This document shows, in pieces, positions 38,969 through 64,000 of a DNA stretch of 64,000 bases. The translations under genes were made by a program, and so were the position numbers. The number at the start of each line of letters is the position of its first letter. Within the stretch, counting starts at the first letter, position 1. The notes below the pieces were generated by a model that was not told where the DNA came from, searched no databases, and was given only the letters and a program-made list of their open reading frames with translations. The stretch is from NCBI GenBank assembly GCA_963842885.1, contig CAWJIE010000005.1, positions 416,001 to 480,000 on the forward strand, given 5' to 3'. The DNA comes from an uncultured Nitrososphaerota archaeon (GTDB lineage Archaea > Thermoproteota > Nitrososphaeria > Conexivisphaerales > DTJL01).

Positions 38969-39836
38969 GATACTCGCAAATAGGGGTCAGCTCCCCACGG
39001 AGCCTCGGCCAAGCGCTCGAGCTCCTTGCCTAGACGTGGCGAAGAATTGCGGGTCATATCGGGGGGCACGGACGTCACCGTCTACCTGAAGGATGGCATC
39101 CTCAAGGAATCTTGCCTTCTGAATTTGAGCAGGCTGAAGGAGTTGGATTACATTCGCGACGAGGGCGGATTCTGTCGCGATAGGCGCGCGTGTCACGTTC
39201 TCCGGGTTGGTGCGGAGCCGAATCGTCCGGCGCTGGGCGCCTCTTCTGTCAGAGGCCGCCGTCGAAGTGGGCTCCCTCCAGATACGAAACCTCGCGACGC
39301 TGGCGGGGAATATTTGCAACGCCTCTCCTGCGGCGGATTCTCTGCCGCCTCTGTACGTCCAAGGCGCGACCGTCGTCCTGACTAGCGCCGAAGGGAAGCG
39401 GGAGCTAACGATGGAGGAGTTCGTGTTGGGTCCCAGGAGGACGGCGCGGAGGCCTGGGGAGCTACTTACAGAGGTCAGGGTCCCCAAGATGGCGTCTGAC
39501 TCTCGCTACTTCTTCAAGAAGCTGGGATTGAGGAGTTCTCAGGCTATTTCGGTGGTTAGCGTTGCGGCCTCTTGGAAAAGGAGGAATGCGAAGATTGCGC
39601 TCGGTGCTGTCGCTCCAACTGTCGTGCGTGCGAGGCAAGCTGAAGCGTTTGTATCTAGATATGGTTTGAGTTTGAAGAGCATTGACGAAGTGTGCTTCCT
39701 AGTGTCGAAGGCCGCCTCCCCCATAGACGACCTCAGAGGGTCAAAGGGTTACAGGCTGGAGGCAATCAGGGCGCTTTCGTTTGAGGGCTTCTATGAACAG
39801 CTCGCAGGAGCGGGGATTGATGCGTGTAAAGCTTGA
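38965..39836 (+). CDS. FAD-binding medium subunit (CoxM/XdhB family), frameshifted near 39030 and 39175
   Basis: SGGTD, QIRNLATLAGN.CNASPAAD, GAVAPT, PIDDLRGS..YR. Confidence 0.9.
39690..39707 (+). repeat. GTGCTTCCTAGT motif copy 1 (intragenic)
   Basis: GTGTGCTTCCTAGTGTCG, identical over 18 bp to the copy at 63128-63145. Confidence 0.9.
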
Positions 39837-40044
39837 ACTGGGGGGTCCCCTCCGCGAGGAGAAGGGCCAGTGGCATTCGCTCAGGCTGTCAGTCGGTTCG
39901 ACTGTCAGCGATGCCCTTCGCAAGGTCGGAGTGACCGAGGAGCTCTACATCGTCGTGATGAGGAACGCGAAGAGGGTGGAGCTTTCCGAAGTCCTCGCCG
40001 AGGGGGACGTCTTAGTGGCTTTTCCACCGGTCGGAGGGGGTTGA
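39820..40044 (+). CDS. MoaD/ThiS/SAMP ubiquitin-like sulfur carrier
   Basis: Beta-grasp size; ends FPPVGGG. Confidence 0.88.
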   Translation: MRVKLELGGPLREEKGQWHSLRLSVGSTVSDALRKVGVTEELYIVVMRNAKRVELSEVLAEGDVLVAFPPVGGG

Positions 40045-42335
40045 GTCTGAAGACGGACAAGAAGTGGATATCACGTTCCCTTCCCCGCATAGACGGCGAG
40101 GGGAAGGTGGACGGGTCCGTCAATTTCTTCTCGGATCTCTATCCGCCCGGTTGCCTTTACGCCAAGACCGTGCGTTCTCCTTTGGCCAGGGCAAGATTGA
40201 CCGGTATCGACACCTCCAAGGCCGAGGCATCGCCGGGAGTGCGTTGCGTTGTGACGCATAGAGACATCCAGGGACTGAACGGCTACGGCGTCTTCTTTAC
40301 TGACGCGCCGGTCCTCTGCTTTTCCGGCGTCAACTACGTGGGAGATCCCGTAGCGCTCGTCGCGGCAGACTCCGAAGATGCGGCGGCCAGAGCCGCGGAG
40401 CTGGTCGAAGTGGGCTACGAGGAGCTCCCAGCAGTCCGTAGTATAGAAGAGGCCTTAGAGCCGGGGGCCCCGGCCTTGCATCCAGAAGGCAACGTCGCAC
40501 GTAGCAACGTAATCAGGAGGGGGAGGTTCGAAAAGGCCGTCAAGGAGGCTCGCCATGTGCTGCGGGGCTTTTATGAGACGCAGAAGCAGAAGCATATGTT
40601 CATAGAGCCTGAGGCGGGGCTCGGCTACGTGGACGGCGGTGGAGTCGTGAACCTCTTCGTCGGGGGCCAGAGCCCGTTCAGGGACGTTCTCCAGGTGGCG
40701 AGGAGCTTGGGGTTACCGAAGGAGAAGGTGAGGGTGGTGAGTTTTCCCATCGGAGGCGCTTTCGGTGGCAAGGACGAGGTCACGGTGCAGATACACCTCG
40801 CTCTCCTCGCCCTGAAGTCTCGGAGACCTGTGAAGCTCATGTGGAGCAGGGAGGAGTCGGGAGCAGCAGGCTTCATGCGGCATGCCTTCAAGCTGGAAAT
40901 GGAGACGGGCTTTGACAGGGATGGCAAGATAGTCGCGAACCGTGCGAAGATTCTTGCGGACACCGGACCCTACCGTTCCTTCGGGCCGGCCGTCCTCGAC
41001 GTGGCCATGGAGACCGTCAACGGACCCTATTTGGTGCCCAACTTCATCATCGATGCGAAGCTGGTCAGGACCAACAACGGCCTCTCAGGGGCTTTCAGGG
41101 GTTTCGGCGCCCCCCAGTCGAACTTCGCCATCGAAGGGCAGATGAGCGCGGCTGCCGAACAGTTCGGTTTCGACAAGGCCGAAGTGAGGAAGAGGAACCT
41201 GTGGAAGGAAGGAAAGGAGGGCAACTTCGGGAAAAAGCTCGTGGACTGCGACGGTCTCGCGGAGTGTCTGAGGCGTGCATCCTCTTCTCAGTTGTGGAAG
41301 TCCAGGGGGAGCCTGAGGTCTAGTAGGCCATGGCTCAAGAGAGGTGTAGGTCTATCCCTAGCCGTGAAGGGTATGGGGTTCGGAACCCTTCCAGACTACC
41401 CGTCAGCGGCCGTCGAAGTCGACCCCCGGGGTCAGGTCACAGTTGGGTTCTCCAACCCAGACTATGGGCAGGGGCTGGTGACGACGAACATGCAGATAGT
41501 TGCGGAAAGGTTGGCTGTCCCTTTGACCTCGGTGCACGTCATCGACGCCGACTCTGGGATGGTGCCCGATACCGGGAGCAGCAGCGCTTCACGAAGCACC
41601 TACACTTCGGGAAACGCCCTTCTGAAGGCCTGCGAGGTGGCCATCTCCGTGCTGAGGGTTGAGGCGGCATCAGAGCTCGGGCTCGGCGTGGATGAGCTTA
41701 CTTATAGCAACGGAAAGTTCATGGGCAAGGGCAGGGAGAAAGACATCTTCAGGCTCGCCAAGTCGATGAGGTTAAGAGGTCTCTCCACCAGATTCGTTGG
41801 GACCTTCGAAGTTCCGCGCCACATGTCCACAGTGAAAGGATCTTTGGAGATACCACACTTGATCTACAACTTCGCGGCACTCGTGGGCGAAGTTGAGGTA
41901 AACACTCTCACTGGCAAGGTGGCGGCTAAGAGATTCATGTTCTTCCCTGACATAGGGAGGGTCCTCAATCCCGTCCTGGCTTCCGCTCAGTGCGACGGAG
42001 GCATTACGCAGGGGCTAGGCTATGCATTAACCGAAGAGCATGTCTACGTCGAAGGAGTCCCAAAGACGACGAACTTCACCACCTACCTCGTGCCCTGTTC
42101 TACGGATTCCCCCGAAGAGATATACACCGAATTCATTACGTCCTGCCTGGACTCGGGTCCGTTCGGAGCCAAGGGCGTGGGTGAGATACCTATCATCCCT
42201 GTGGCGAGCTGCGTGGCTGATGCCGTTTCAGATGCTACCGGGACAAGAATATCTTCCATACCGCTCAAACCCGAAAAAGTCTTGGCCGCGCTGTCCAGGC
42301 AAGCCTCTGAACGCAAGTCGGAACGATGGCCTTGA
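40041..42335 (+). CDS. Molybdopterin-binding large subunit, xanthine dehydrogenase family
   Basis: GGAFGGK, GAFRGFGAPQ, YGQG, SSASRST, GGITQGLG, GAKGVGE. Confidence 0.94.
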   Translation: MSLKTDKKWISRSLPRIDGEGKVDGSVNFFSDLYPPGCLYAKTVRSPLARARLTGIDTSKAEASPGVRCVVTHRDIQGLNGYGVFFTDAPVLCFSGVNYVGDPVALVAADSEDAAARAAELVEVGYEELPAVRSIEEALEPGAPALHPEGNVARSNVIRRGRFEKAVKEARHVLRGFYETQKQKHMFIEPEAGLGYVDGGGVVNLFVGGQSPFRDVLQVARSLGLPKEKVRVVSFPIGGAFGGKDEVTVQIHLALLALKSRRPVKLMWSREESGAAGFMRHAFKLEMETGFDRDGKIVANRAKILADTGPYRSFGPAVLDVAMETVNGPYLVPNFIIDAKLVRTNNGLSGAFRGFGAPQSNFAIEGQMSAAAEQFGFDKAEVRKRNLWKEGKEGNFGKKLVDCDGLAECLRRASSSQLWKSRGSLRSSRPWLKRGVGLSLAVKGMGFGTLPDYPSAAVEVDPRGQVTVGFSNPDYGQGLVTTNMQIVAERLAVPLTSVHVIDADSGMVPDTGSSSASRSTYTSGNALLKACEVAISVLRVEAASELGLGVDELTYSNGKFMGKGREKDIFRLAKSMRLRGLSTRFVGTFEVPRHMSTVKGSLEIPHLIYNFAALVGEVEVNTLTGKVAAKRFMFFPDIGRVLNPVLASAQCDGGITQGLGYALTEEHVYVEGVPKTTNFTTYLVPCSTDSPEEIYTEFITSCLDSGPFGAKGVGEIPIIPVASCVADAVSDATGTRISSIPLKPEKVLAALSRQASERKSERWP

Positions 42336-42453
42336 CGGGTCTTGCATGCCAAGCGTGGGTTCGAATAGCGTAGCGATTTTGGTCGACTTGAGCCCGTCAG
42401 AGCAGTTCTAGGTCCGAAACCGTTGCTCGGTCTTCTACGGGCGACGGCCCCGT

Positions 42454-43068
42454 CTATTTGTAATCTTTTTCGAGTTCGAGTTCTTTGGCGGCTCTTGCGA
42501 AGTCTTCTTGATAGTCTATGTCCAAGAGCGCTCGCTGCGAGGCCGTCTCGACGTAGGTCGTGGTCTCCCTGTATTTCTGGACGACCTCTTTCATCCCGCG
42601 CCTCTCTTCGGATATCTCCATCAGATCGTCAAAGGTAGAGTCGTTGAAGAGGATGGGGTGGCCGCTCCTCCCCTTATATGCAGCCACTACGATATCATTT
42701 TTTGATCTCGCGAACTCGGCTAGGACGATGTCATAGAGACGCGGCTCAGTGAAAGCCATGTCACCGGGGGAGATCACGATCGCCCTCGCCCTGTCCTTCA
42801 GGTATCCCACTCCCGCGCGAATAGATGTGCTCATCCCCTGGAAGTACTCAAGATTGTGCACTTCTTCGAATCGCAAAGCGGAAAGCGCTTCAAGGACTCT
42901 CTCTCTTTCGTGGCCCGTCACGACGACGGTGTACTTGAGGCCCGCTTTCTGCCCGGCGAGGACAACGCGTGCGACGATTGGCACTCCGTCGATTAGTTCG
43001 ATGAGCTTGTTGCGCCCGAAACGGGTGCTAAGACCAGCCGCGAGGACCATCAAATAGATGGGCTTCAA
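42454..43068 (-). CDS. Molybdenum cofactor cytidylyltransferase-like nucleotidyltransferase (MocA/YgfJ)
   Basis: LAAGLSTRFG.NK, GMSTS, GDM, GHP.LF, DID. Confidence 0.88.
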   Translation of the reverse strand: MKPIYLMVLAAGLSTRFGRNKLIELIDGVPIVARVVLAGQKAGLKYTVVVTGHERERVLEALSALRFEEVHNLEYFQGMSTSIRAGVGYLKDRARAIVISPGDMAFTEPRLYDIVLAEFARSKNDIVVAAYKGRSGHPILFNDSTFDDLMEISEERRGMKEVVQKYRETTTYVETASQRALLDIDYQEDFARAAKELELEKDYK

Positions 43069-43103
43069 GCGTAGCCTCTGTTCAAGACTAGACGTATATT
43101 AAT

Positions 43104-44417: not shown

Positions 44418-44515
44418 AATATGTCAAAGGTGGCTCCACCCTCCAGCCGAGATAAGGGTTTCTTAACGCGGTACAATAGACAAGGTTAATTTGGCTATGC
44501 CGCTATTAGGATAAC

Positions 44516-44953
44516 GTGTTGAGGAACAGGCTTATCGAAGCCTCTAGAACTCGAGGCCGGGTGTCCGTGAACCTCATCGCTGTCGTTATGGGTGGAGGCA
44601 TCGTTATGACGTTGATCGGCGGCGATTTCCCTCATGTCGGCGCAGTGGCCCTTGCAGAACCTCGCCCCAGCGGGGTCGACAGGGGGAAGACGAGCAGCTC
44701 CGTGTCGGTACTGGTTCGACTGGGGCACAAGGAGGACGAGCTGGCAAAGAGGCTGGCCGGAGATGTTGCTGCTTCGTTGAACCTACCGGTCGTCCTCTCA
44801 GCGGGCATTCATATCGACCACGCCAGCGCCCAGGAAATCCATGATGCCGAGCTCCTGGCTGGCGCTCTGGTTGAGGATTCAGTTCCGAGGATCAGGAAGC
44901 TGCTGGAAGGCGTTCTTCTTAGAAGGAGGCGTCCGCCTCGGTCGCCTTCTTGA
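44516..44953 (+). CDS. Conserved protein, LpdD/PAC-like chaperone fold
   Basis: GG..PHVGAVALA, GHKEDELA, AGIHID motifs. Confidence 0.7.
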   Translation: MLRNRLIEASRTRGRVSVNLIAVVMGGGIVMTLIGGDFPHVGAVALAEPRPSGVDRGKTSSSVSVLVRLGHKEDELAKRLAGDVAASLNLPVVLSAGIHIDHASAQEIHDAELLAGALVEDSVPRIRKLLEGVLLRRRRPPRSPS

Positions 44954-45269
44954 AATCGAATGTGCCGTTCTTCATAGTGAGCTCGTACATGTCGTTCACT
45001 TCGAACCTGATGCCAAGGAGGTCGTATTCGTCTTCGGACAGGATTACCGTGAGCTTCGGAAGGATAAGGTCTCTCGCCTGTGGCATCATCACGCCGAGGC
45101 TCTGCATCTGGCTGAGGATTCCCTGAACCATCTGAGCTTCTTCACCGTATTGGGCACCGGACCTCTGTCCTTGCCGGCGTCGGACTTCGACGAGCTCTAC
45201 TTGTTTGCCTGGCTTGCCCGTCTCCATGTCGGTGTGGCTGCTTACTCTATTGACCTTGACTAGAACCAT
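44919..45269 (-). CDS. Arcadin-1
   Basis: GKQVELVE...EEAQMVQ.ILSQ.Q..G...PKLT..LSEDEY..LG..FEVN..Y matches arcadin-1 as recalled. Confidence 0.75.
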   Translation of the reverse strand: MVLVKVNRVSSHTDMETGKPGKQVELVEVRRRQGQRSGAQYGEEAQMVQGILSQMQSLGVMMPQARDLILPKLTVILSEDEYDLLGIRFEVNDMYELTMKNGTFDFKKATEADASF

Positions 45270-45308
45270 CGCGGGCGATTTCTCACCGGACGATGCCTTA
45301 AGTCTTTC

Positions 45309-46286
45309 TCACATACGCCTTGAAATAGTGCGGCGGAAGCTCTCGAGATCCTCGCGCTTGACAATCCTCGCATACGGGTCAAGACCGGCCCCTGAAATGC
45401 CAATCGCTATCGCTTCAGTGTTAGTGAAGACCCCCGGGGTGCCATTCCTATCGATCACTATAATACCCCCAGTGTTGTCCCCGAAGAGCCTCCCCATCTC
45501 CTGTACGGCCTTCTTTGCGGCCAAAGGCGCCGGGTTCTTCGACGCAATTAAGCCAACGGCCCTAAGACAGAGGCCACACTTAATGATCATTTCTCCGACG
45601 CCCGTGGCCGACGCCGCACCAACATTCCCCATGGCATAGTAACCCGCCCCGGCGATTGGAGAATCGCCCATCCGGCCCGGCAGCTTGAATTGCATACCGC
45701 CGGTGCTTGTGGCGGCAGCTAGGCCCCCGTCCTGGTCCAAGGCGACGGCTCCCACGGTGTCGGATGGTGCGGCGGCCCTCAGGTAGTTGCGATCCAGTCT
45801 CCCAATCCACCCCTGCTGCGACGAAGAGAGGTAGGACCTCCAACCCTGTTGGAAGGCCTCCGCCTTCTCTTTGGTGGGTAAGAACTTCTCCCTCAGGCCA
45901 TAGGCTTCGGCTAGCTTCTCGGCACCAGTAGAGACCAAGATGACGTGAGCGGTCTTCTCCATTACTATCCTAGCTAGTTCGACGGGGTGGGGGACGTCTC
46001 GGACGCACCCGACTCCGCCAGCGAGCAGCCTCTCACCGTCCATGATCCCCGCATCTAGCTCGATGTAACCTTCATAGTTAAGCGCGGCTCCCCTTCCAGC
46101 GTTAAGGACGCCCGAATCCTCCATCACCCTGACGGCGGCGACGACAGCATCGACAGCACTGCCCTTCCTGAGGGTCGAAGCCCCGGTCTCCGCCGCGTCT
46201 TCAAGAACCTTCCTGGCTTCTAGTGCAGCTCCTTCGTTCAAAGTCCAACGGCCGGCACCCCCTTGAACCACCATTTTGCCGTTCAA
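45309..46286 (-). CDS. Isoaspartyl peptidase/L-asparaginase (Ntn hydrolase)
   Basis: GGAG, NAGRGA, ELDA.IMDG, DTVGAVA, TSTGG, GR.GDSP. Confidence 0.92.
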   Translation of the reverse strand: MNGKMVVQGGAGRWTLNEGAALEARKVLEDAAETGASTLRKGSAVDAVVAAVRVMEDSGVLNAGRGAALNYEGYIELDAGIMDGERLLAGGVGCVRDVPHPVELARIVMEKTAHVILVSTGAEKLAEAYGLREKFLPTKEKAEAFQQGWRSYLSSSQQGWIGRLDRNYLRAAAPSDTVGAVALDQDGGLAAATSTGGMQFKLPGRMGDSPIAGAGYYAMGNVGAASATGVGEMIIKCGLCLRAVGLIASKNPAPLAAKKAVQEMGRLFGDNTGGIIVIDRNGTPGVFTNTEAIAIGISGAGLDPYARIVKREDLESFRRTISRRM

Positions 46287-46368: not shown

Positions 46369-46536
46369 CTACTTCCGCCTGAGTCCCTGCCGGATGATCT
46401 CCTCGATAAGTCGGCTTCTGTTAGCGGTGACCAGCTGGCCAGCCCTGACCTGGTCCGCCTGATGGCGACGAACGAGCTTGTCAAGATCCTGCAGAAGGTC
46501 TTCAGACAGGGTGATAGTCACCTTGGATTTCTTCAT
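46369..46536 (-). CDS. Ribbon-helix-helix (CopG-like) regulator
   Basis: KVTITLSEDLLQDLD...NRSRLIEEII. Confidence 0.8.
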   Translation of the reverse strand: MKKSKVTITLSEDLLQDLDKLVRRHQADQVRAGQLVTANRSRLIEEIIRQGLRRK

Positions 46537-46547
46537 AACATAAGATG

Positions 46548-46563
46548 GTATGATAGTATGATA
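46548..46563. promoter_or_regulatory. Tandem 8-bp repeat, candidate RHH operator
   Basis: GTATGATA x2, 12 bp upstream of the RHH start codon. Confidence 0.4.
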
Positions 46564-46741
46564 TAGCCTTTGTGCAAATAGACCATGATGTCCCGATACA
46601 ACAAGATGACGGTCATGGCCGCTCAGGCAGGCCGTCGTCGGCGAGTTGCCTAGCATGTCGATTGGGTCCGAGTTGCACGTCCAAGCTAATGCGCTGCAGA
46701 TATCGAACAAGATATCGTGTAAGATAGAGCCTAGGACCAAG

Positions 46742-47029
46742 CTATGCGTTTTCCTGTTCGATGCCGGCCGAGTCGCCATAGCCGCATCCGCAGGCCATCG
46801 TGTTCGTGAGCACGAAGTGCTTGTCTTCGCCCTCTATAACAAGGTCGATCTCCGCTTGTTCAAGGACCTCCGCGGTCCGCTTGTCTGTCGGGACAAAGAC
46901 ATCTCTTCCGTTGAAGATCAAGTCACCTCCGGGGACTTTGTCGACTAGGAACATGCAAAGTGCTAGGTTTACTTGGTCCGCCTGTTGCATGGAGAAACAG
47001 ATTGCCTCGTACTTGCTTTCAGATAGCAT
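46742..47029 (-). CDS. HesB/IscA-like (A-type Fe-S carrier) domain protein, degenerate
   Basis: D..F.G..VFV...T...LE...ID...F...N...CGCG. Confidence 0.6.
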   Translation of the reverse strand: MLSESKYEAICFSMQQADQVNLALCMFLVDKVPGGDLIFNGRDVFVPTDKRTAEVLEQAEIDLVIEGEDKHFVLTNTMACGCGYGDSAGIEQENA

Positions 47030-47143
47030 TCCCTTAAATTTGTCTGTTTTTGCTTTATTAAGTGTAATAAGTGTAATACTTACGAAGTTTGAGTTCGATT
47101 TGGTTTGATGTTAACTTTGTTTATTTTTTTGTTCTGTGATATT

Positions 47144-47158
47144 GTGTGCTTCCTAGTG
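47144..47158 (+). repeat. GTGCTTCCTAGT motif copy 2
   Basis: GTGTGCTTCCTAGTG after a T/G-rich tract. Confidence 0.9.
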
Positions 47159-47214
47159 CCCGAACCGAACGTCTCAAATAGCGCCAAAGCTCGCAATTCA
47201 CCGGCCGAGATGGC

Positions 47215-48045
47215 TTGAGGAGGAAAATCCGCGACTACGAAAGAGACCTTTGGGCACTGTTCTGGAGTTATTCCAATAGCGGCGAATTCAGCGAGATCCG
47301 GACTTACCTCCTCCAGCGCAGTGGACTCCCCGGGCCCAGGGGAAACCTCGAGCTAGCAACTGCCTTCGGGAACGTCATTCAAAGAGGTGTCGTCTCTGGT
47401 GCCCTCGATTCCAAGGAACTCCTCTCGCTCTGTCAGAGCCTGTGCCAGATACCTCCCGCACTGGCACCCACAAACGATCCCAAGGAGTTCTTGGTGCTCT
47501 GCGGAACATGCGGGCTGGGAGCCCTCGGGACCGTGGCAGCAGATTTCCAAGCCGTCGCTTCCAGTCTGAGCTCCTTAGCCGGCGACCTAAGATGGAGAAC
47601 TAGGGAGGGGGTTGCCATGGCCCTTCAGCGGATGATCGACGCAAAGCCAAAACAGACCCTAATGCTACTCGCCCAGTGGGTTGAAGTAAATGACCCCCTT
47701 CTCCTTCGAGCCGTCGTCGCGGGGGTGGCGGAGCCGAGGCTCCTCCGCAACGACGATGTAGCCCGGTCCGCCCTCGGGCTTCACCGGAGGATTTTCGAGA
47801 GGCTTTCGGAACTTGACCGCGAAGGCGACGACTTCAAGGCTCTAAGGAAGAGCCTCGGCTACTCTCTGAGCGTAGTCGTGGCTTCTTCGCCTAGGGAGGG
47901 CTTTGCTTTGATGAATGAGTTGGCTAGGAATGAGGATCATGATGTTATCTGGATAGTGAGAGAGAATTTGACGAAAAAGAGACTGGCGAAGTGCTTGGAT
48001 AATTTGGATACTGTGAAGAAGATACTTTCAAGTAAGCAGGTTTAG
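47215..48045 (+). CDS. HEAT-repeat-like helical protein
   Basis: SGLPGPRGNLELA, DLRWRTREGVAMALQR, AEPRLL, W.VRENL.KKRL. Confidence 0.75.
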   Translation: MRRKIRDYERDLWALFWSYSNSGEFSEIRTYLLQRSGLPGPRGNLELATAFGNVIQRGVVSGALDSKELLSLCQSLCQIPPALAPTNDPKEFLVLCGTCGLGALGTVAADFQAVASSLSSLAGDLRWRTREGVAMALQRMIDAKPKQTLMLLAQWVEVNDPLLLRAVVAGVAEPRLLRNDDVARSALGLHRRIFERLSELDREGDDFKALRKSLGYSLSVVVASSPREGFALMNELARNEDHDVIWIVRENLTKKRLAKCLDNLDTVKKILSSKQV

Positions 48046-48149
48046 CCGTTGCATTGTGAAGTGTCTTCTACGTGTCTGGTCTCTTGTATATTGATTCTTT
48101 TGTGTTAATTTATTGAATTGGGTTTTGTTTATAGAGAAGGGTTGGTTGT

Positions 48150-48163
48150 GTGTGCTTCCTAGT
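48150..48163 (+). repeat. GTGCTTCCTAGT motif copy 3
   Basis: GTGTGCTTCCTAGT after a T/G-rich tract. Confidence 0.9.
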
Positions 48164-48356
48164 AGGAGGCTGGGCAGGGTGGCTCTGAGCTGCCTTGGTG
48201 TTGTCCATTAGAAGCGTTCTCGACCCAGCAGTCTGGGCAATCAAGCTCGGGTATTTGTCAAGCATGCAATGGGGATGCTTTAGGTGTTGAGCGCGATTTA
48301 GCCTGTCATCAGGGGGACCCGGTAATCGGCGGCGTGCCTACGGGTCATCAGTCGGC

Positions 48357-48587
48357 GTGGACAACTTTATGTATCCAAGAAACGTGGTGTTGTCCGTGCC
48401 GCGACAGAATCTGATCAGGTGCCCTAAGTGCGATAGGCTGGCTTGGAACCCTGATATCGCTATCAGGACCGGTAAGAACCCCGAGAAGAAGTACAGCTAC
48501 TACAGATACAGGCACCCTCTCGACAGGCGGACCGGCCGCAACAAAACGTGCTACGTCCCGGTCGTCAAGCCCGACCCCAACCACTAG
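48357..48587 (+). CDS. Small C2HC zinc-ribbon protein (paralog 2)
   Basis: CPKCDR...RTGKNPE..Y.YY..RH..D.RTG.NKTCY; stop codon lies inside the ACTAGGAAGCAC motif. Confidence 0.75.
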   Translation: MDNFMYPRNVVLSVPRQNLIRCPKCDRLAWNPDIAIRTGKNPEKKYSYYRYRHPLDRRTGRNKTCYVPVVKPDPNH

Positions 48588-48594
48588 GAAGCAC
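48582..48594 (-). repeat. GTGCTTCCTAGT motif copy 4 (inverted)
   Basis: CACTAGGAAGCAC on + strand, followed by an A/C-rich tract. Confidence 0.9.
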
Positions 48595-48681
48595 CCCATC
48601 AAACCAACAACTGCTCTCAACACTCTTAACAATAAGAATTCGAATTTACATAAAAAGATTCTCCCTTATCAATATAACGTA

Positions 48682-49098
48682 TCATTTCCCTCGAAACGCA
48701 TCAGCCTTACGCAACAAAATCTTTATGTTTTCATAAATAGTTGCTCTCATAGCCTCTTCCAAGGTCATCCAAACGAAATCCCGGTGTTCATTCGAAATCT
48801 TCACGTTGACGCTGTCAGTATAACCCAGGTAATATCGTACAGATTTATGAACCTTAGCTCCCCCTGGCCGCAAGTAGAAGTAAGTAATTTTCTCCGCGAA
48901 CCCGTCGACGAGCTTTATGTCAGGGAGGCCCGTTTCCTCCCTTGCTTCTCGGACCGCCGCGTTCAGCTCCGACTCACCAATTTCGATGTTGCCCTTGGGA
49001 AAGTCATACTTCGACTTGTCGTTTCTCAGCAATAGGTACTTGGTGACTCCATCCTGGGTATGGAAGACTACTACCCCAGCCGAACGCTCTTCGAGCAA
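48682..49098 (-). CDS. NUDIX hydrolase (Ap4A hydrolase-like)
   Basis: PKG.IE.GE....AA.RE.REETG Nudix box, S.EH. Confidence 0.92.
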   Translation of the reverse strand: MLEERSAGVVVFHTQDGVTKYLLLRNDKSKYDFPKGNIEIGESELNAAVREAREETGLPDIKLVDGFAEKITYFYLRPGGAKVHKSVRYYLGYTDSVNVKISNEHRDFVWMTLEEAMRATIYENIKILLRKADAFRGK

Positions 49099-56895: not shown

Positions 56896-56966
56896 GCGGT
56901 GACGCAATGAGAGCGTCATGCCCCAATCGACTTATACCCGCTGACGGTTGCCCCCAGTAGGCTGAA

Positions 56967-59843
56967 TTGAGCACTAAGCGCGGCGTCGAAGGGGTATTCA
57001 GGAGCTTCACTCCGGCGATAGTGGAGCTGCTCATAGAGGGGAACATCCTGAAGCCCACGCCGCCTCAGGTGGAGGCCATCCCCCTGATCTCCTCTGGCAG
57101 GAACACTTTGGTCGTCTCCCCAACGGGATCCGGCAAGACGGAGGCCGCCATCCTCCCCATCCTGGATATAATGGTGAGGGGCTCGGTGCAGTCGAAACGG
57201 GGGGTCCTCCTCCTCTTCATCACCCCGCTGAGGGCTCTCAACCGTGACCTCCTCGACAGGATGACGCGCTGGTGCAAGACCCTCGACATTCGGCTGGCCG
57301 TAAGGCACGGAGACACGGAAACCGCGGAAAGGAGGACGCAGACCATGGCGCCCCCGCACGTCCTCATCACCACGCCGGAGACCCTGGAGGTCCTCCTCGT
57401 CGCTAAGGTATTCAGGGAGCACCTTAGGAGCCTGCGTTGGGTCGTGGTGGACGAAATACACGAGCTCGCCACCGACAAGCGGGGCACGCAGCTGGCCGTC
57501 GCCCTGGAGCGCCTAAGAAGGCTCACGGATGCGGACTTCCAGCGCATCGGATTGTCCGCCACCGTCGGCGATCCCGAGAAGGTCGCCAACTTCCTTGTGG
57601 GCCCAGGTAGGGAATGCTCCGTCGTCAAGACGCCGGTGGCCAAGCTTTTCAAGTTCGAGGTCCTCTACCCGGAGGCGAGCAAACAGGACTCGGCCATGGC
57701 TGACAAGATGATGAGCCACCCGGACGTGACCGCCAGGCTGAGGACCATGCTGCGCCTCATCGAAGAAGGGCCCCTCCTCATCTTCACCAACACCAGGACC
57801 GAAGCTGAAATCCTGACAAGCCGGCTCAGGCAGTGGAGTCCCCGCATAGCGATAGCCGTCCACCACGGGAGCCTCTCTCGGGCCTCCAGGTCAAAGGCTG
57901 AAGAGGACCTGAAGTCGGGCCGATTAAAGGCCGTTGTATGCACCAGCAGCCTCGAGCTGGGCATTGACGTGGGCCTGTTGAACCTCGTCATCCAATATAA
58001 CTCTCCGAGACAGGTCGTTCGGCTCATACAGCGTGCTGGGCGGAGCGGCCACACTCTGGAGAGGACCAGCAGGTGCGTAGTCATCTGCCAGGACGCCGAC
58101 GACGCCCTAGAGGCTGCGGTGGTAGGGAGGAGGGCGAAGGAGGAGCTTCTCGAAGAACCCGTCATCCCCATGCTGTGCAGCGACGTGCTGGTGCAGCAGC
58201 TCTCTGGCCTGCTCATCGAATCCGGCAGGCTGGAGACGAGCGATGCACTTTCCCTATTCAGGAGGAGCTTTCCATTCACCCAGCTGAACGAGCGCGACAT
58301 CAGGGAGGCCGTCGACTACATGGCGATGCTCAAGCCTCGTCTGGCAAGGGCTGCGGGGGATGACATCGCCCGACCTTCGGACAACCGCGGCCTTTTCACG
58401 TATTATTTCGACAACCTCACCATGATCCCTGAGCACCGGCAGTACCCCGTCATCACCGAAAAGAAGGAGGCGGTGGGGCTCCTCGACGAGGAGTTCGTGT
58501 CGGAGCACGGCGAGATAGGGAAGAAGTTCATCCTCAGGGGGAGCGTCTGGAGGATAAACCAGGTTTACAACTCCAAGGTCTTTGTCGAGGAAGACGACGA
58601 CCCGATGGGAGCCATCCCGAGCTGGGTGGGCGAAGAGATACCCGTGCCCACCGAGGTCGCAATGGAGGTCGGGAGCCTCAGGGGCCTGGCCCCGAGAGCC
58701 GAGTCGGAGGGGAAGCACCTCTCTGCGCTCTGCGAGGAGCTGGCCGCCCGGTACCCCATGAGGGAGGAGGGGTTCAAGAGATCCCTCTCCTCCGCCGTCC
58801 AGCAGCTGAAGATGGGTCTGGCTCTTCCGTCAGACTTCACGATCACGGTCGAACAGTGGAAGGAGCTCGTCATCATAGTGACCCACAGGGGGCTCAAGGC
58901 GAACAGGACGCTGGGTCGACTGCTTTCATACAGATGCTCTTCGGTCCTGGGGAAGCCCGTCAGCGTCAACCAGGACGCATACAGGATATTCCTGGAGGGC
59001 AAGACGCTCACCTGCGAATCCGTCAAGGACGCCCTCGGCTATCTGGCAGAGAGCGACCTCGTGTCCTATGTGACCGCCGCCTGCGAAGACACGGGCCTCT
59101 TCCGGAGGAGGTTTGTCCACGTCGCTCGTAAGATGGGCGTCCTCTCGAGAGACGCAGAGCTAACGAGCTCCCTGGTCAAGCAGCTCGTCGAGACCTACAA
59201 GGGCTCCCTCCCGTACAGAGAGGCCTGGAGGACCTTCCTCCAAGAGGACTTGGATTCGAGAGAGACCAGCGCCCTCCTCGCAGGGCTCGCCTCAGGCAGG
59301 ATCGCCGTCGAGCTGCTGGGCCGGCTGGCTGAGCCCAGCCCCATCGCCATGATAGGGCTCGAAGAGATGTCCCGCAAGGGCGAGGTGATGGATCCGGCAA
59401 AGATGAAGCGGCTCCTCCTCGAGTCGGCCAGGTCCAGGGTGCTCAACGGAAGGACCATCCTCGTCTGTCCCAACTGTTGGAACTACGTCGAAGAGAAGTA
59501 CGTCGTCGACCTTCCCGAAAGGATCTCCTGCCCCCTGTGCAAATCCGACAGGGTGGCATCGTCCTACCGCGAACTTGAAGAGATGCAGGACCTGGCCAGA
59601 AAGGTGCGGAGCCGCACGAGCCTCTCCAGAGGGACGCTGAGACACAAGAAGGAACTGGAGGGAAGCTCGCGCCTAAATTCGACCTTCGGATCCATGGGAG
59701 TAAAGGCCCAGGTCTTCAACGTCGCCCTCGCACGGCTGGCCGAGATGCTCGCCAGGGCCCCAGGGAACGAAGACGACCTCCTCCTCGCTCTGATGGAGGA
59801 GGAGAGGAAGACGTACTTGAAGCGCTTCGTGGGCTCTAGGTAG
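56967..59843 (+). CDS. Lhr-family SF2 helicase with C-terminal Zn finger
   Basis: PTGSGKT, DEIH, SAT, HHGSL, SSLELGID, QRAGRSGH, PSWVGE, CPNC/CPLC. Confidence 0.93.
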   Translation: MSTKRGVEGVFRSFTPAIVELLIEGNILKPTPPQVEAIPLISSGRNTLVVSPTGSGKTEAAILPILDIMVRGSVQSKRGVLLLFITPLRALNRDLLDRMTRWCKTLDIRLAVRHGDTETAERRTQTMAPPHVLITTPETLEVLLVAKVFREHLRSLRWVVVDEIHELATDKRGTQLAVALERLRRLTDADFQRIGLSATVGDPEKVANFLVGPGRECSVVKTPVAKLFKFEVLYPEASKQDSAMADKMMSHPDVTARLRTMLRLIEEGPLLIFTNTRTEAEILTSRLRQWSPRIAIAVHHGSLSRASRSKAEEDLKSGRLKAVVCTSSLELGIDVGLLNLVIQYNSPRQVVRLIQRAGRSGHTLERTSRCVVICQDADDALEAAVVGRRAKEELLEEPVIPMLCSDVLVQQLSGLLIESGRLETSDALSLFRRSFPFTQLNERDIREAVDYMAMLKPRLARAAGDDIARPSDNRGLFTYYFDNLTMIPEHRQYPVITEKKEAVGLLDEEFVSEHGEIGKKFILRGSVWRINQVYNSKVFVEEDDDPMGAIPSWVGEEIPVPTEVAMEVGSLRGLAPRAESEGKHLSALCEELAARYPMREEGFKRSLSSAVQQLKMGLALPSDFTITVEQWKELVIIVTHRGLKANRTLGRLLSYRCSSVLGKPVSVNQDAYRIFLEGKTLTCESVKDALGYLAESDLVSYVTAACEDTGLFRRRFVHVARKMGVLSRDAELTSSLVKQLVETYKGSLPYREAWRTFLQEDLDSRETSALLAGLASGRIAVELLGRLAEPSPIAMIGLEEMSRKGEVMDPAKMKRLLLESARSRVLNGRTILVCPNCWNYVEEKYVVDLPERISCPLCKSDRVASSYRELEEMQDLARKVRSRTSLSRGTLRHKKELEGSSRLNSTFGSMGVKAQVFNVALARLAEMLARAPGNEDDLLLALMEEERKTYLKRFVGSR

Positions 59844-60405
59844 AAGGTTGTGAGGCGTCTATGCGCTTCGAAAGTATGGAGGTGAGGAGCTCGTCCCTGT
59901 CTATCTCCACGCGGCTCCTCCACCCGACCCGGATGAAGTCGCCATCTTCCTCCAGGTAGCCCAGGCGCACGAGCTTGTTCATGATCTGCTGAACGCGCCA
60001 CGCTGGAAGCTTCTCCTTGATGGTGTCCTCAAGGAGGCGCTTGGGGGCCGAGCCCGCACGCACGAAGAGCTGGCTCAAGAGGATGGCCAGGCTCGCCGCC
60101 TCCTCCATCCTGAGCCATCCGCCAAGCTCCCTGTCCTTCAGGGGCGCCTTGGTCACCAGCACGTAGCGGGCCTTGTCCGGATCCTTCTCGTCTTCCTCGT
60201 CGGGCACCGCGACGAGCTTCAGGCCGAATTCCGAGGCCAAAGAGTCCGTCAGCTTGAGGACGTCAAGGTAGCTCCTCCCGAGGAGGCGCTTGAGCTCCCA
60301 ACCTTTGAGACCAGGCTGGAAGTGGCGCTGGTAGAGCAGTGTCGTAAGGCCCTTCAGGGCCTTCTCTTTGAGCTCTTGCGTGTCCTTGTTCTGTTCTTGT
60401 GTCAC
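59836..60405 (-). CDS. Tandem winged-helix protein, putative kite (ScpB/Nse-like) partner of the SMC-like ATPase
   Basis: Third gene of the SMC operon; C-terminal L.RLGYLEE....IRVGWR wing motif. Confidence 0.6.
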   Translation of the reverse strand: MTQEQNKDTQELKEKALKGLTTLLYQRHFQPGLKGWELKRLLGRSYLDVLKLTDSLASEFGLKLVAVPDEEDEKDPDKARYVLVTKAPLKDRELGGWLRMEEAASLAILLSQLFVRAGSAPKRLLEDTIKEKLPAWRVQQIMNKLVRLGYLEEDGDFIRVGWRSRVEIDRDELLTSILSKRIDASQPST

Positions 60406-60410
60406 CCATC

Positions 60411-61139
60411 TCACCCCAATGAAATCGCAACGGACCTGTCTACTTTGCCCTCCGCAGGCGTTATGAGATAGTCCGAAGTGGACGGGTCGTAGCGGAGGGC
60501 GAACGCTCCCCTCATGCACAGGTGGGCAAGAGAGTAGGTCTCCTTGAGCTTCTCCGCCCCCTGGAAGCCGCCCGCGAACTCCTTGAAGAGAAGAGGACCT
60601 TCGGCAAGCCTCCGGCTGACCCTGAGGAATGTGGACCGGAGGCACTTTTCAAGCTCCTCGGGGTCCATCCTTATGGATTCATAGGCGGTCCCTTCGTCCG
60701 CTGGTCCCAGCGGCCCCAGCCGGCCTAAAGAACCCCACCCGTAGAGCTGCACCCAGTAATCGGCGGCCTCGAGCAGCCTCGAGGTGGGCATCAGCTTCGC
60801 AGCGGCCGGGGGATGGTGCGCCTCCCCCAATGCCCCCGCTATGTCCGAGACGCTGAGAGACATCAGCTTGGAGATGAGAAGGCCCGGGTCCACCTGGAAG
60901 GTCGTCAATTGGAAGGTGAGCCATTCGTCCTGCAGGCCGACGACCTTGCTGACCGCGTTGATGGCCTGGGCGTCGGCGAGGAGGTCTTGCCTCTCCAGCT
61001 CCTTGAGGCCCTTCTTTAGCCTCCTCAGTATGGGCTTGACCTCCACCATGAAGGGATCTCCTCCCTGGTCCTTGAGGTCCTCAGGGAGCGAAGCCACCCT
61101 GAGCCTGTACTCCTTCGCGTCACTCGACTTTGCTGACAC
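60411..61139 (-). CDS. Putative kleisin (ScpA-like) partner of the SMC-like ATPase
   Basis: DPF.VEV N-terminal motif resembling ScpA DPW.IDI; C-terminal wHTH-like segment; overlaps the SMC stop. Confidence 0.55.
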   Translation of the reverse strand: MSAKSSDAKEYRLRVASLPEDLKDQGGDPFMVEVKPILRRLKKGLKELERQDLLADAQAINAVSKVVGLQDEWLTFQLTTFQVDPGLLISKLMSLSVSDIAGALGEAHHPPAAAKLMPTSRLLEAADYWVQLYGWGSLGRLGPLGPADEGTAYESIRMDPEELEKCLRSTFLRVSRRLAEGPLLFKEFAGGFQGAEKLKETYSLAHLCMRGAFALRYDPSTSDYLITPAEGKVDRSVAISLG

Positions 61140-63048
61140 CCTTGGCCACCTTGATCTGCGAAGCCGTAGCCACCTTCTGGACCATTATGTAGTGAGCAGA
61201 CTCGTCATAGAAAGCCGGCGAGCCGGGCGTTATGACCAGATACTGCACCGACCTGTCCGCCTTGAAATAGTCGTGGATGGCCCTGATGAAAGTCTCGCGG
61301 CTGGACGGGTCCATGTGGACGTCGAACTCGTCCACGGCCCTGAACGGCGAGATGATGTGCTCTTGGAGGGCGAACAGGAAAGCGGTAACGGCCGAGCTCC
61401 GCTCGCCTCCGCTCTGTGTGTACGCGTCCAGCGGGACCAAGTCCTGTCCCCTGAAGGCCACTTGGAGCTCGAGGCCCGCCCTGAGGGGGTCATCCTCCCC
61501 AACTACCCTCACCCTTCCGCTACCGCCGATCAGGGACAGCATCTTGCCGTAGCTTTCGTTGACCCCGGAGATGAGTTCGTCCAGCTGCTTGCGCCAGACC
61601 TTGAACCTCTCGTTGACCTCCTCCAGGGTGGCCTCCTTGTTCTCCTTCAACTCGTCCAGCTTCCCGGAGAGATCCTGTATCCTGATCTGGAAATCGCGAT
61701 AAATCTGCTCGGCCTCCTGGGGGATGTCGCCCAGCTGGACTAGCTGCGCTTCGTCCACCTTGATGGCAAGCTGGATGTCGCCCAGGCTCCTCGTAGAGGT
61801 CACTCTGAGGCCAAGGGCTTCCGCGGCCGACTTCGCCGCCACCAGCTCTTCTTGCGACGAAACCTGCAAACCTTCAAGGGTCTTCAGCTCCCTCTTCTTC
61901 TCCTTGAGGCGATAGTCCAAGACAGCGACCTTCTCTCTTGACACGGCGTATGCCTCTACCTTGGCGGGGAATCCCGAGCTCTCCGCACCCAGCCCTCTTT
62001 CGACGGAGGAGATCTCGTCCTCCAGCGTCTTGACTCTTCCCTGTCCAGAGCTCAACACCTTCTCTACCTCTTCGGCAAGGTCCTTCGAAGCGTCCTGCAG
62101 CGCTGCCTTCAAAGAGCCGTAGGACGAAGAATCATGCTGAATCGTTAGCAGGTCACCTCGCAGCCTGGACAGGCTCCTCTCTCCCTTGAGCAGCGATTCT
62201 AGGGCTTCGGTGATGGCCTTGGCTCGTTCCTGAACGTCTCCCTGCCCTTCCCCCAGCTTCGTCGTCATCTCAGCGATCGTCGATTCGGCCTCCCTGATGC
62301 GCTGGGCGATGGAGGTAAGCTTCTCCTCCTCTCTAGAGACCCTGCACCACACCTCTTCAAGCCTGAACCTGGTGAGCTCTTCGCGTAGACCCTGGATTTT
62401 CACACTCTTTTCATAGTTCTCCTGCCAGCGAGCCAACGTGGTCTTCGCAGTCTCCAGCTCCTTCTTCTTCTCCTCTTCCTCGGTCAGAATGGAATCGAGC
62501 CTGCCTTTGGCCTCCAGCAGGCTCGCCCTGTACGAGGCCAATCCGGCGGCATCCTCGACAAGGGCCAGCTTCTCTTCAGGCCTGACGACACTGAATGTGT
62601 CTCCAAGGCCTTGATGCATCATTATGAGCATGTTGTCCGGGTTGAGGCCGAGCTTGCCCAGCGTTTCGACGACCGCCTGCTTGTCAGCCTCCTTGAAATC
62701 GATCTCGAACCAGTATGTGCCATCCTTCCGGATGTACCTCGAGAGGTGAATCGTGTCGGCCCTGTAAGGGAGGGGCCTTTTGCCATTGACGGGAGAGTTA
62801 TCAAGGAGAAGCGTAACCCTGGAAATGTCCCTGCCTCTCTTGACCAGGTCGCTGAGCTTCCTCGACCTCTCGGTCGAGGCTTGGCCCAAAGCGACAGATA
62901 TGCCAATCAGAATGCTTGACTTCCCCGCGCCATTTGGGCCCATGACTACGTTGAGGCCAGGCTTGAGCATGACTCGGCCATAGTCGTAGCTAAGGAAGTT
63001 CTCGAGGATGACCTCCTTGATGAATGCCCGGCCCTCCCCTTTCTCCAA
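61120..63048 (-). CDS. Short SMC-like ATPase (642 aa; ClsN/Sph/arcadin-4-like)
   Basis: ENFLSY, GPNGAGKS Walker A, coiled coil, QSGGE signature, DEFDVHMD Walker B, ITP. Confidence 0.9.
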   Translation of the reverse strand: MEKGEGRAFIKEVILENFLSYDYGRVMLKPGLNVVMGPNGAGKSSILIGISVALGQASTERSRKLSDLVKRGRDISRVTLLLDNSPVNGKRPLPYRADTIHLSRYIRKDGTYWFEIDFKEADKQAVVETLGKLGLNPDNMLIMMHQGLGDTFSVVRPEEKLALVEDAAGLASYRASLLEAKGRLDSILTEEEEKKKELETAKTTLARWQENYEKSVKIQGLREELTRFRLEEVWCRVSREEEKLTSIAQRIREAESTIAEMTTKLGEGQGDVQERAKAITEALESLLKGERSLSRLRGDLLTIQHDSSSYGSLKAALQDASKDLAEEVEKVLSSGQGRVKTLEDEISSVERGLGAESSGFPAKVEAYAVSREKVAVLDYRLKEKKRELKTLEGLQVSSQEELVAAKSAAEALGLRVTSTRSLGDIQLAIKVDEAQLVQLGDIPQEAEQIYRDFQIRIQDLSGKLDELKENKEATLEEVNERFKVWRKQLDELISGVNESYGKMLSLIGGSGRVRVVGEDDPLRAGLELQVAFRGQDLVPLDAYTQSGGERSSAVTAFLFALQEHIISPFRAVDEFDVHMDPSSRETFIRAIHDYFKADRSVQYLVITPGSPAFYDESAHYIMVQKVATASQIKVAKGVSKVE

Positions 63049-63127
63049 CGCCGCCTATCCGCTAAGAAGACAGGTAATAAACCGTTTGCCATCCTACTTA
63101 GTTGACAACCGCCTAGATGTGGCTGAC

Positions 63128-63145
63128 CGACACTAGGAAGCACAC
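63128..63145 (-). repeat. GTGCTTCCTAGT motif copy 5 (inverted), upstream of the SMC operon
   Basis: CGACACTAGGAAGCACAC on + strand, followed by an A/C-rich tract. Confidence 0.9.
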
Positions 63146-63307
63146 ACCAAAACAACTCCAAAATTCAACAACAACTATGCGAATGGAACCCAGAGCAAGA
63201 GAAGCTAACAGAACTCATGAAGCGGTAGAAAGAAGCACAAATGCCGACCCTAACCATAAGGCCCCAGTGCCCAAGAAACAAGACGGCCGCCGCACCTGTC
63301 GGCTCTC

Positions 63308-64000
63308 TCAACTTGGAGAGTTTTCAATCTTTTTCGCGAACGACTCCAACTCATCTGCTGTGGGGCTTCCTCTCGTGTCTCTGTGTGTCGCCTTGAAGCT
63401 CCCCGCATAGTTGGCGAGCATCAGGGAGTCCTCCGGCGAGCGACCCAAGACGATCTGGACGGCGAAGCAGCCAATAAAGGCGTCGCCGCAGCCCACGGTG
63501 TTCACCGCTTTCATGCCCAGGGCGGAGAGGTCCACCCCAGCCACCTCCTCCTCGATGCCGGGTCCCAGCATGATTGCTCCGTTCCTCCCTCTCGTCACCA
63601 CTAGCTTCAACTCCTCCTGGAAATTGCTGAGCTCCCGGTATGCGGCCGCTAGCGTCGAAGCCCCGGCCAAGTTCATGACCTCGGCCTCGTTGAGTACAAG
63701 GTAGTCTACGTACTTCAGCAGCTTGGTCACGGCCGCAGCCCCCTTGAGGGTGCGCACGCCGGGCGCCCACAGCCGCGGGATAGGACGCCTCGACGCGGTC
63801 CAAAGGAGGGCATGAGTGAAGTCCAACGGCGTGTCCATCACTACCAAGAAGCGTATCGTGTTGAGGACCTGTTTGACGCCCGGACTCTCAAGGAGGGTTG
63901 GCTTCAGGGAGGCGTTCGCTCCGAAGTAGGTGTTGATGGCGTTCTGGCCCCCGTCATCTATGAGGATGTATGCTTGGCCGGACTCCACGTTCTTGAGCCT
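63308..64000 (-). CDS. PfkB-family carbohydrate kinase (5' end outside window)
   Basis: NEAE, VTRGRNGA, NTVGCGDAF. Confidence 0.92.
   Translation of the reverse strand, partial: RLKNVESGQAYILIDDGGQNAINTYFGANASLKPTLLESPGVKQVLNTIRFLVVMDTPLDFTHALLWTASRRPIPRLWAPGVRTLKGAAAVTKLLKYVDYLVLNEAEVMNLAGASTLAAAYRELSNFQEELKLVVTRGRNGAIMLGPGIEEEVAGVDLSALGMKAVNTVGCGDAFIGCFAVQIVLGRSPEDSLMLANYAGSFKATHRDTRGSPTADELESFAKKIENSPS

Follow-up and report, generated by a model that had tools for sequence, protein, structure and literature searches.

The 64,000-nt stretch of DNA analyzed here (the window) comes from an uncultured Nitrososphaerota archaeon and comprises positions 416001-480000 of contig C5 in an assembly, called G000, of 2,034,618 bases on 11 contigs that is 87% complete. 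It carries five exact copies of an asymmetric 12-mer, GTGCTTCCTAGT, which we named c1 to c5 (Table 1) and which is a real, conserved, unusual, genus-restricted and orientation-dependent cis-element. On the strand that bears the motif, the DNA 5′ of each copy is poor in C and rich in T, and this skew ends sharply at the motif. We tentatively propose, in a reading that falls somewhat short of being probable, that a locally encoded DNA-binding protein recognizes GTGCTTCCTAGT and sets up a polar boundary to transcription there; the locus offers candidate genes for this protein.

A 12-mer confined to one cluster

The five copies had been noticed in a first-pass annotation made from the letters of the window, and they proved to be the only exact copies in the whole assembly, all lying within 24 kb. 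Allowing one mismatch revealed no further copy in the window, the reversed pattern, used as a control, had no match in the whole assembly, and the six one-mismatch copies found elsewhere in the genome are approximately what chance would give. None of 100 dinucleotide shuffles of the window reached five matches (mean 0.19). The annotation was therefore right that the motif is non-random, but the uniform-composition expectation on which it based its rarity was naive, as 33,375 canonical 12-mers are present in at least four copies in this genome. The rarity of GTGCTTCCTAGT lies in its clustering, its copy number by itself being unremarkable: 12-mers with at least four copies that all fall within 30 kb number 12, and these represent four repeat families, one of which is that of GTGCTTCCTAGT.

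Apart from an internal CTAG, the motif has no dyad symmetry. Its copies are oriented + + + - - along the window, identically in the related genome G003, and the extra copies found in relatives conform to this arrangement in two opposed groups. One of the copies, c1, is coding and not intergenic.

A one-sided C-poor flank

In the 100 nt 5′ of c1 to c5, C makes up 0.18, 0.06, 0.08, 0.06 and 0.18 of the bases on the motif strand, compared with a genome mean of 0.291, and the flanks of c2, c3 and c4 fall at genome quantiles of 7e-6 to 6e-5 for low C. Averaged over the five copies in 50-nt bins, C declines from 0.26 at -300 through 0.21, 0.17, 0.17 and 0.16 to 0.06 at -50, and stands at 0.26 directly 3′ of the motif. 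The polar, strand-specific C loss with a sharp edge reported in the first-pass annotation is clearly present, and all seven of the hand counts given there were exact (4 C in 50 nt, 16 in 50, 7 in 103, 19 in 52 and 1 in 59, and 5 G in 86 nt and 1 G in 35). The gain in T matches the loss of C, with G and A hardly changed; the 100-nt flank of c2, for example, consists of A 0.21, C 0.06, G 0.20 and T 0.53.

Scanning related genomes, as the annotation had suggested, extended this pattern to every exact site known in the genus. At all 17 sites, distributed over four genomes, C is less frequent than expected in the 50 nt that precede the motif (0-13 C, compared with 14.5). Pooled, these flanks hold 109 C in 850 nt (0.128 vs. 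0.29), and the 50 nt 3′ of the motif, at 0.248, are near normal. The skew is strongest in G000 and G002, and is weak and limited to the last 50 nt in G003 and G004. Such composition is not a general property of gene boundaries in this genome. The mean composition of the 100 nt past 1217 stop codons or before 1214 start codons is that of the genome, and none of the 1217 3′ flanks of long open reading frames (ORFs) is equally C-poor. When 1076 ORF-free gaps of at least 80 nt were ranked by G+T excess, the c5 gap came first and the c3 gap (48046-48347) second. T runs in six flanks were neither longer nor more common than composition predicts (shuffle P 0.44-1.0), which speaks against classical oligo-T terminators; in G003, T5-T7 runs occur directly 3′ of three sites at gene 3′ ends. 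A scan for sigma-70 promoters and hairpin terminators returned counts within the shuffle range.

The flanks are not homologous to one another (21 of 21 pairwise comparisons with z < 2.4 vs. shuffles), and the idea that they are remnants of a mobile element, named in the first-pass annotation as a danger to its own reading, consequently fails. When C was collapsed to T and each of the five flanks was compared by three-letter BLAST with the whole genome and with the loci of relatives, the c5 flank alone rose above shuffled controls (125 and 123 bits, compared with a shuffled maximum of 69.9); nothing above the controls was found for c1 to c4.

Skew within genes and its possible substitutional origin

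The skew is also visible in the third codon positions of genes that run into a site. For the 276-aa HEAT-like gene, the ratio of T to C at third positions (T3:C3) in the last 34 codons is 10:2 in G000 and 15:3 in G002, compared with 41:92 and 33:100 in the rest of the gene (Fisher p 5e-4 and 2e-6, respectively). For the NUDIX gene, the last 34 codons have 11:4 vs. 21:31 in G000 (p 0.04), 12:6 vs. 13:47 in G002 (p 9e-4) and 18:4 vs. 9:44 in G003 (p 2e-7). By T3 minus C3, the ends of these two genes lie at approximately the 98th-99th percentile of 1765 ORFs. The same test was not significant for the 276-aa gene in G003 and G004, for the NUDIX gene in G004, or before the site found only in G003 (0:13 vs. 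14:129). Upstream of c1, two 17-codon bins have T3 values of 0.35 and 0.41 (about 13 of 34 codons), compared with 0.19 over the remainder of the gene and 0.12-0.24 in its orthologues.

The flank composition fits a strand-specific replacement of C by T and is compatible with the deamination proposed in the first-pass annotation; the substitution evidence does not establish such a replacement. Four-taxon parsimony over 11 genes yielded 8 C>T and 5 T>C changes near the motif vs. 421 and 167 far from it (Fisher p 0.53), in a test that has little power because the T-rich state is common to several genomes. Of the interpretation offered there, the motif-linked exchange of C for T on one strand has held up, and the expected excess of C>T substitutions near the motif has not appeared. 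In the c5 flank, changes specific to G000, counted as changed sites over the sites of that base at which the other sequences agree, were C>T 9/24, G>A 5/32, T>C 3/30 and A>G 1/19, a decay that is AT-biased with a modest strand bias.

Parts of the flanking DNA differ between genomes. Compared with the relatives, in which the motif sits -11 to 19 nt past the stop codon, G000 has additional DNA in its c3 and c4 flanks. Among close strains, compared as DNA contigs of four sequencing runs, X1 to X3 have a further 31-nt C-poor insertion at 48079, and in X1 and X2 85 nt replace 12 nt at 63177-63190; the length of the flanks thus changes with their composition kept. The c5 flank covers the remains of a 45-47-aa gene (MCCGNSAELYE…) that is intact in G002, G003 and G004 and in G000 is decayed and truncated by approximately 65 nt. 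A paralogue of this gene lies at C3:502776-502982, where the adjoining motif has decayed to GTGCTTCGTAAT. Two direct repeats, AAGGGTAAACACTATAGCTTAAC, were also observed 3′ of the paralogue (about C3:503020-503085).

Conservation within the genus

Among 41 related genomes, GTGCTTCCTAGT was found in G000 and in three of the four other genomes of its genus, with 4 exact copies in G002, 5 in G003 and 3 in G004, all at the syntenic locus. The remaining genome of the genus, G001 (59% complete), has no copy, and neither has any of the 36 genomes of other genera. Gene order and orientation around the copies are identical in the four genomes that have the motif. Sites of the c2 type lie in the spacer that separates an IscA-like gene from the 276-aa gene, those of the c3 type directly 3′ of the 276-aa stop codon, and those of the c5 type upstream of the short SMC-like gene, while c4-type sites occupy the stop codon of the 72-aa zinc-ribbon ORF, a position just past the NUDIX stop codon, or both. 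An extra copy in G003 is located 9 nt past the stop codon of a KH-ATPase gene.

An alignment of the four genomes showed one-mismatch near-copies at some of the orthologous places. The position of c1 has 1, 1 and 2 mismatches in its orthologues, and the rare CTA leucine codon there (5.4% of Leu codons) is retained in all four genomes. The distance from the 276-aa stop codon to the motif is 106 nt in G000, 18 in G002 (with one mismatch in the motif), 5 in G003 and -11 in G004, where the TAG of the motif serves as the stop codon itself. At the c2 place, the TATA-like element is GATGTTAAC in G000 and, at the aligned position, ACTATTAAG in the relatives. In G002 and G003, the motif follows this conserved element at 28-29 nt and precedes the start codon; G004 retains the element and lacks the motif.

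The 276-aa gene has the same phyletic range as the motif (four of nine family genomes, all of genus g1). With two Conexivisphaerales records excluded, all 78 loci that carry homologues of the 276-aa protein lack GTGCTTCCTAGT. In other genera of the family, synteny at the corresponding loci is only partial, the GC content is 41-44%, and no 12-mer is repeated; at loci L113 and L114 (genomes G006 and G007) this composition, set against 58% in the present genus, amounts to a large shift inside one family. A scan of metagenomes with a 14-mer returned at least 120 stretches, and among the matches listed one contig (L131) is a relative, three unrelated contigs have two copies, and the others are single chance matches.

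A possible polar boundary to transcription

Each of the seven independent sites occupies the sense strand and is co-oriented with the adjacent co-directional genes; the zinc-ribbon ORF alone sees the complement. Sites in the position of a 5′ untranslated region (5′ UTR) are c2, c5 and the extra site of G003, which also follows the KH-ATPase stop codon; directly 3′ of a stop codon are c3, the NUDIX-end copies and, again, the extra site of G003. Copies of the motif are found -11 to 19 nt past the stop codons of three genes (276-aa, NUDIX and KH-ATPase). The skew is confined to the side from which transcription comes. Its sharp edge and strict one-sidedness argue for a mechanistic link between motif and skew. 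The co-orientation of every copy with local transcription is a confound that the author of the first-pass annotation could not see, and because of it a reading in terms of transcription is no worse than one in terms of replication.

The sites mark edges of transcription units, and each is on the sense strand of the unit approaching it; we suggest that a protein bound there would be a one-way boundary for RNA polymerase. At the promoter of the 276-aa gene such a protein would act as a repressor, and past the 276-aa, NUDIX, KH-ATPase and PfkB genes it would be a roadblock or insulator. The flank in which T has taken the place of C could be either a trace of, or an aid to, polymerase dwelling just upstream: at the dwell site the non-template strand may be repeatedly open, or a tract skewed to G over C may favor pausing or RNA-DNA hybrids.

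Two small proteins whose genes belong to this genus-specific block are candidate binders. One is the 72-aa C2HC zinc-ribbon protein, whose ORF lies between the inward-facing c3 and c4 and which matched no family in Pfam, NCBIfam, PHROGs, PDB sequences or the Atlas, its zinc-ribbon-recombinase-like match being weak (E 0.21). The other is a 55-aa ribbon-helix-helix (RHH) protein with a weak match to the aCcr1 family (E 0.055), which is as restricted to the genus as the motif is. The RHH gene is preceded by a non-coding stretch (46537-46600, -) that is strongly conserved in all four genomes, contains a TATA-like GGCTATATCATAC and is probably the promoter or operator of that gene. The same databases gave merely HEAT-like and distant DNA-alkylation-repair leads for the 276-aa protein.

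Several observations weigh against such a boundary. Most archaeal operators have dyad symmetry, which the 12-mer does not, and it is missing from the conserved stretch upstream of the RHH gene. The c2 flank, the strongest of all with C 0.06 and T 0.53, has no co-directional gene upstream of it, so that queued polymerases hardly explain it. A roadblock at c1, inside the operon that runs from coxM to coxL, would be costly to the cell. The G003-only site, which is the youngest, has no footprint, that of G003 and G004 is weak in general, and parsimony, at its low power, gave no excess of C>T near the motif.

Boundaries of a comparable kind are known among eukaryotes. Reb1 and TTF-I (at the "Sal box") act at polar terminators of RNA polymerase I that have a T-rich release element upstream and are specific to rDNA, and their sites can stall forks. 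As here, the site has a fixed orientation 3′ of a gene, and the coding strand just upstream of it is T-rich; in the present case, however, the binder is a candidate, the T runs do not go beyond composition, and some sites are in 5′ UTRs or coding sequence. GC-skewed, R-loop-prone terminator regions are likewise known at closely spaced human genes. These share with our sites an excess of G over C on the non-template strand at gene 3′ ends with close or convergent neighbors, but they belong to another domain of life and another scale, and the skew described here ends at a specific 12-mer.

A bolder claim would be that GTGCTTCCTAGT is the first sequence-specific polar barrier in Archaea, Ter/RFB-like or Reb1-like, stalling replisomes or RNA polymerases that arrive from one side, with the C-to-T-replaced strand recording exposed single-stranded DNA. 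We judge this to be quite unlikely. Should the motif be a one-way boundary formed by protein on DNA, as in our preferred reading, Archaea would have a defined polar barrier in which transcription insulation or fork pausing could be tested, and barriers of this kind would be seen to mark the base composition (a one-strand exchange of C for T that stops at the site), a mark that could be looked for in any genome from its sequence alone. Taken in a more ordinary way, the locus would be a compact regulon of an uncultured lineage, with an unusually strict asymmetric 12-bp site and two small candidate binders adjoining.

Alternative explanations

The alternative that survives best, although we regard it as unlikely, is that GTGCTTCCTAGT is simply an operator, or a site close to a promoter, for a local transcription factor that acts without polarity, and that the T/G-rich flanks are selected spacers which merely adjoin it. 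Clusters of sites around the gene of their binder are common, and c2 lies between a TATA-like element and a start codon, as do sites of the aCcr1 repressors in the part of the literature available to us (PMC9976878). This promoter position fits c2 in G000, G002 and G003, but not c3, c4, the NUDIX-stop copy or c1. According to the same source, as far as that part goes, the aCcr1-box of the Sulfolobales RHH cell-cycle repressors is a 9-bp palindrome present over many promoters; an RHH gene is thus involved there and adjoins the motif here, but the aCcr1-box is a palindrome of another sequence, whereas GTGCTTCCTAGT is asymmetric and has most of its copies outside promoters. Selected spacers could draw on the T5-T7 runs next to three G003 sites, yet the T runs of the six flanks are those that composition gives, C alone has been exchanged, for T, with G and A unchanged, and average ORF flanks are genome-like. 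The strict one-sidedness and the sense orientation would also be left unexplained.

Rather unlikely as well, in our estimation, is a linear motif that acts at the level of RNA. Here GUGCUUCCUAGU, present in sense transcripts in 5′ UTRs, 3′ UTRs and coding sequence, would be bound by an RNA-binding protein or an antisense RNA, and the C-poor tract would keep the upstream RNA unstructured. Such a function would account for the sense orientation of all sites; a common pairing partner would fit the conservation of the very same 12 nt at many sites, and the complement is present at the 3′ end of the zinc-ribbon mRNA in three of the four genomes (with one mismatch in G003). Pairing of this kind is hard to reconcile with the lack of compensatory change between the inverted copies, and no common fold was found around the 17 sites when both strands were folded. 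Rfam 15 had no match at the gathering threshold in the window and none at E up to 1 in 46900-48800. If the TATA-like element is the promoter, c2 would begin just about 5 nt past the predicted transcription start. The cluster does encode PIN and KH-domain proteins that might serve as partners, but their genes are not genus-specific.

A polar replication-fork barrier, or another replication or segregation site, appears improbable. Forks arriving from the 5′ side would stall at the motif, and C would be lost from the lagging-strand template behind them, which is the motif strand, as it stays exposed along roughly the length of one Okazaki fragment. The skew is indeed on the predicted strand and side, even at c2, where no transcription enters, and a footprint of 50-250 nt, two opposed groups of a polar site, and the presence of a short SMC-like operon and a gene for an Lhr helicase in the cluster all agree with this mechanism. 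Orientation, however, is wholly confounded with gene direction, because every site is on the sense strand of adjacent genes. The fork traps of Bacteria, Tus-Ter and RTP-Ter, likewise use a short asymmetric site, in two opposed orientation groups around a center, with a direction-dependent action. They differ in that, if the flank is taken as the stalled side, the sites described here block entry to the center and not exit from it, which is the reverse of a fork trap; moreover, the three to five sites here are within 24 kb, the host is an archaeon, and no Tus or RTP homologue was seen, although no search was aimed at one. In their logic, these traps and the Reb1 and TTF-I terminators come nearest to the present sites.

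A link to a replication origin or terminus, which the first-pass annotation had proposed to look for, found no support. Cumulative GC skew has merely a weak maximum near the locus (450-460 kb of C5), with no clear origin or terminus there; contig C5 has no orc1/cdc6 gene, the Cdc6_C matches being on other contigs (C4:344684-344950 and C3:234220-234501), and no exact 12-mer with at least three copies was found near the cdc6 genes. The inverted pair c3/c4 does not enclose an A/T-rich unwinding element of the kind found at archaeal origins: the interval is 419 bp long, has normal composition and holds a gene, and the T-rich DNA lies outside the pair. Literature searches for the motif string, which matched one unrelated primer, and for archaeal polar fork barriers turned up no such archaeal element. 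The latter search returned bacterial and eukaryotic systems, together with Sulfolobus, where replication ends by stochastic fork collision according to the part of the report available to us (PMC3020120). Centromere-like SegB sites were considered and rejected. In the accessible part of the preprint describing them (bioRxiv 10.1101/2025.02.07.637068), these are 13-bp palindromes, TCTAGA-S-TCTAGA, mostly intragenic and within tens of kilobases of the gene for the small DNA-binding protein that uses them; they resemble our sites in being discrete and clustered, and one is inside the gene of an SMC-like protein, but their sequence differs, no segA-like gene is near GTGCTTCCTAGT, and the sole ParA-like match (C5:377992) is 77 kb away.

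Least likely of all, and very improbable, is a recombination or mobile-DNA site, whether as the core of site-specific recombination, a cassette boundary, or a sequence spread by short local copying: direct copies flank the 276-aa gene, which looks horizontally acquired, inverted copies flank the zinc-ribbon gene, subsets of sites have extra flank in common (18 nt identical between c1 and c5, and a T run plus CATCCGG at the G003-only site and one G002 site), and the central protein has its weak recombinase-like match, but gene order and orientation are identical in four genomes, the flanks are not homologous, the loci of 276-aa homologues elsewhere are without the motif as noted above, none of the genes annotated in the cluster (38.5-64 kb) was recognized as a recombinase gene, and the nearest integrase matches are 440 kb off on the contig (C5:9966-11788), with others on C3 and C4. 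A mobile-element repeat, such as a miniature inverted-repeat transposable element, a terminal inverted repeat or an att site, was rejected on the non-homologous flanks, the orthologous positions in four genomes and the lack of a nearby integrase.

Features of the locus and other repeats

The coordinates of the motif copies, their flanks and the neighboring genes are collected in Table 1. The conserved non-coding block listed there is probably the zinc-ribbon gene's own promoter.

Table 1. Motif copies, C-poor flanks and associated genes in the window.
Feature	Coordinates	Strand	Remarks
Motif copy c1	39692..39703	+	Inside CoxM-like ORF 39207-39836; encodes V-C-F-L-V; CoxL-like start 167 nt further on
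Motif copy c2	47146..47157	+	Between TATA-like element and start of 276-aa gene; orthologous in G002, G003
Motif copy c3	48152..48163	+	3′ of 276-aa gene stop codon
Motif copy c4	48583..48594	-	Sense strand of NUDIX unit; overlaps zinc-ribbon ORF stop codon
Motif copy c5	63132..63143	-	Between PfkB-like gene and short SMC-like gene (61120-63048)
c1 flank, coding	39590..39691	+	T-rich third codon positions; 4 C in last 50 nt
c2 flank, C-poor T/G-rich	47030..47145	+	Divergent spacer, IscA-like gene (-) / 276-aa gene (+); TATA-like GATGTTAAC at 47107-47115
c3 flank, C-poor T/G-rich	48046..48151	+	Extra DNA compared with relatives; strain-variable length
c4 flank, C-poor T/G-rich	48595..48681	-	Between NUDIX stop codon and motif; 5 G in 86 nt on + strand
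c5 flank	63144..63307	-	Decayed, 5′-truncated copy of 45-47-aa gene (MCCG...) on opposite strand
276-aa HEAT-like gene	47215..48045	+	Bracketed by c2, c3
Conserved non-coding block GCAATGGGGAT..TTTAGGTGTTGAGCGCGA	48266..48296	+	Alignment of four genomes; probable promoter of zinc-ribbon gene
72-aa C2HC zinc-ribbon ORF	48369..48587	+	Between inward-facing c3 and c4; TAG stop inside c4; candidate binder
NUDIX gene	48682..49098	-	Runs into c4; last 34 codons T3-rich
55-aa RHH gene	46369..46536	-	Genus-restricted like the motif, 4/9 family genomes; candidate binder

The zinc-ribbon protein has an 83-aa paralogue in the window (33603-33854, -) with the same CPKCGR…RTGKNPE…RTGKNK.CY pattern, which is conserved in G002 and G003 and has weaker matches in two other genera. 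Near c5, the region 59836-63048 (-) encodes a 642-aa SMC-like protein that matched canonical SMC best, in the N-terminal portion of the latter (TIGR02169, with 196 bits, which is under the cut-off). Next come two ORFs, of 242 and 269 aa, that matched no family, apart from a weak MAGE/KITE-like match (E 0.006) for one of them; the three genes may form a minimal SMC-kleisin-like operon. An arcadin-1 homologue (PF18653, E 9e-20) is encoded at 44919-45269 (-). ARAGORN reported a 103-nt tRNA-Gly(CCC) at 45688-45790 (+), antisense inside an asparaginase ORF (45309-46286), a call that is probably false.

A second private clustered repeat, CCACCTAGGTCC, is present on contig C4 at 332445, 334086 and 338722 (+) and 341839 (-), in the orientation + + + -. 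An orc1/cdc6 gene is 3-12 kb away from its copies, and the cumulative GC skew of the contig peaks nearby. In contrast to those of GTGCTTCCTAGT, the copies have 30-60 nt of homologous flank (…GTCGGGAATCGCGT-CCACCTAGGTCC-TCTAAC…), and the repeat therefore resembles an att-type or small mobile repeat. Contigs C2 and C3 hold a dispersed repeat family of about 50 copies around CATTCGCAGGTCCAAGCCC (for example at C2:15564, 17406, 18073 and 23929), with companion families that include GCTGCTGGAAAAGAA, ATTAACCTATTG and AAAGATGATTAA, and the 4-12 kb region of C2 is an AT-rich island.

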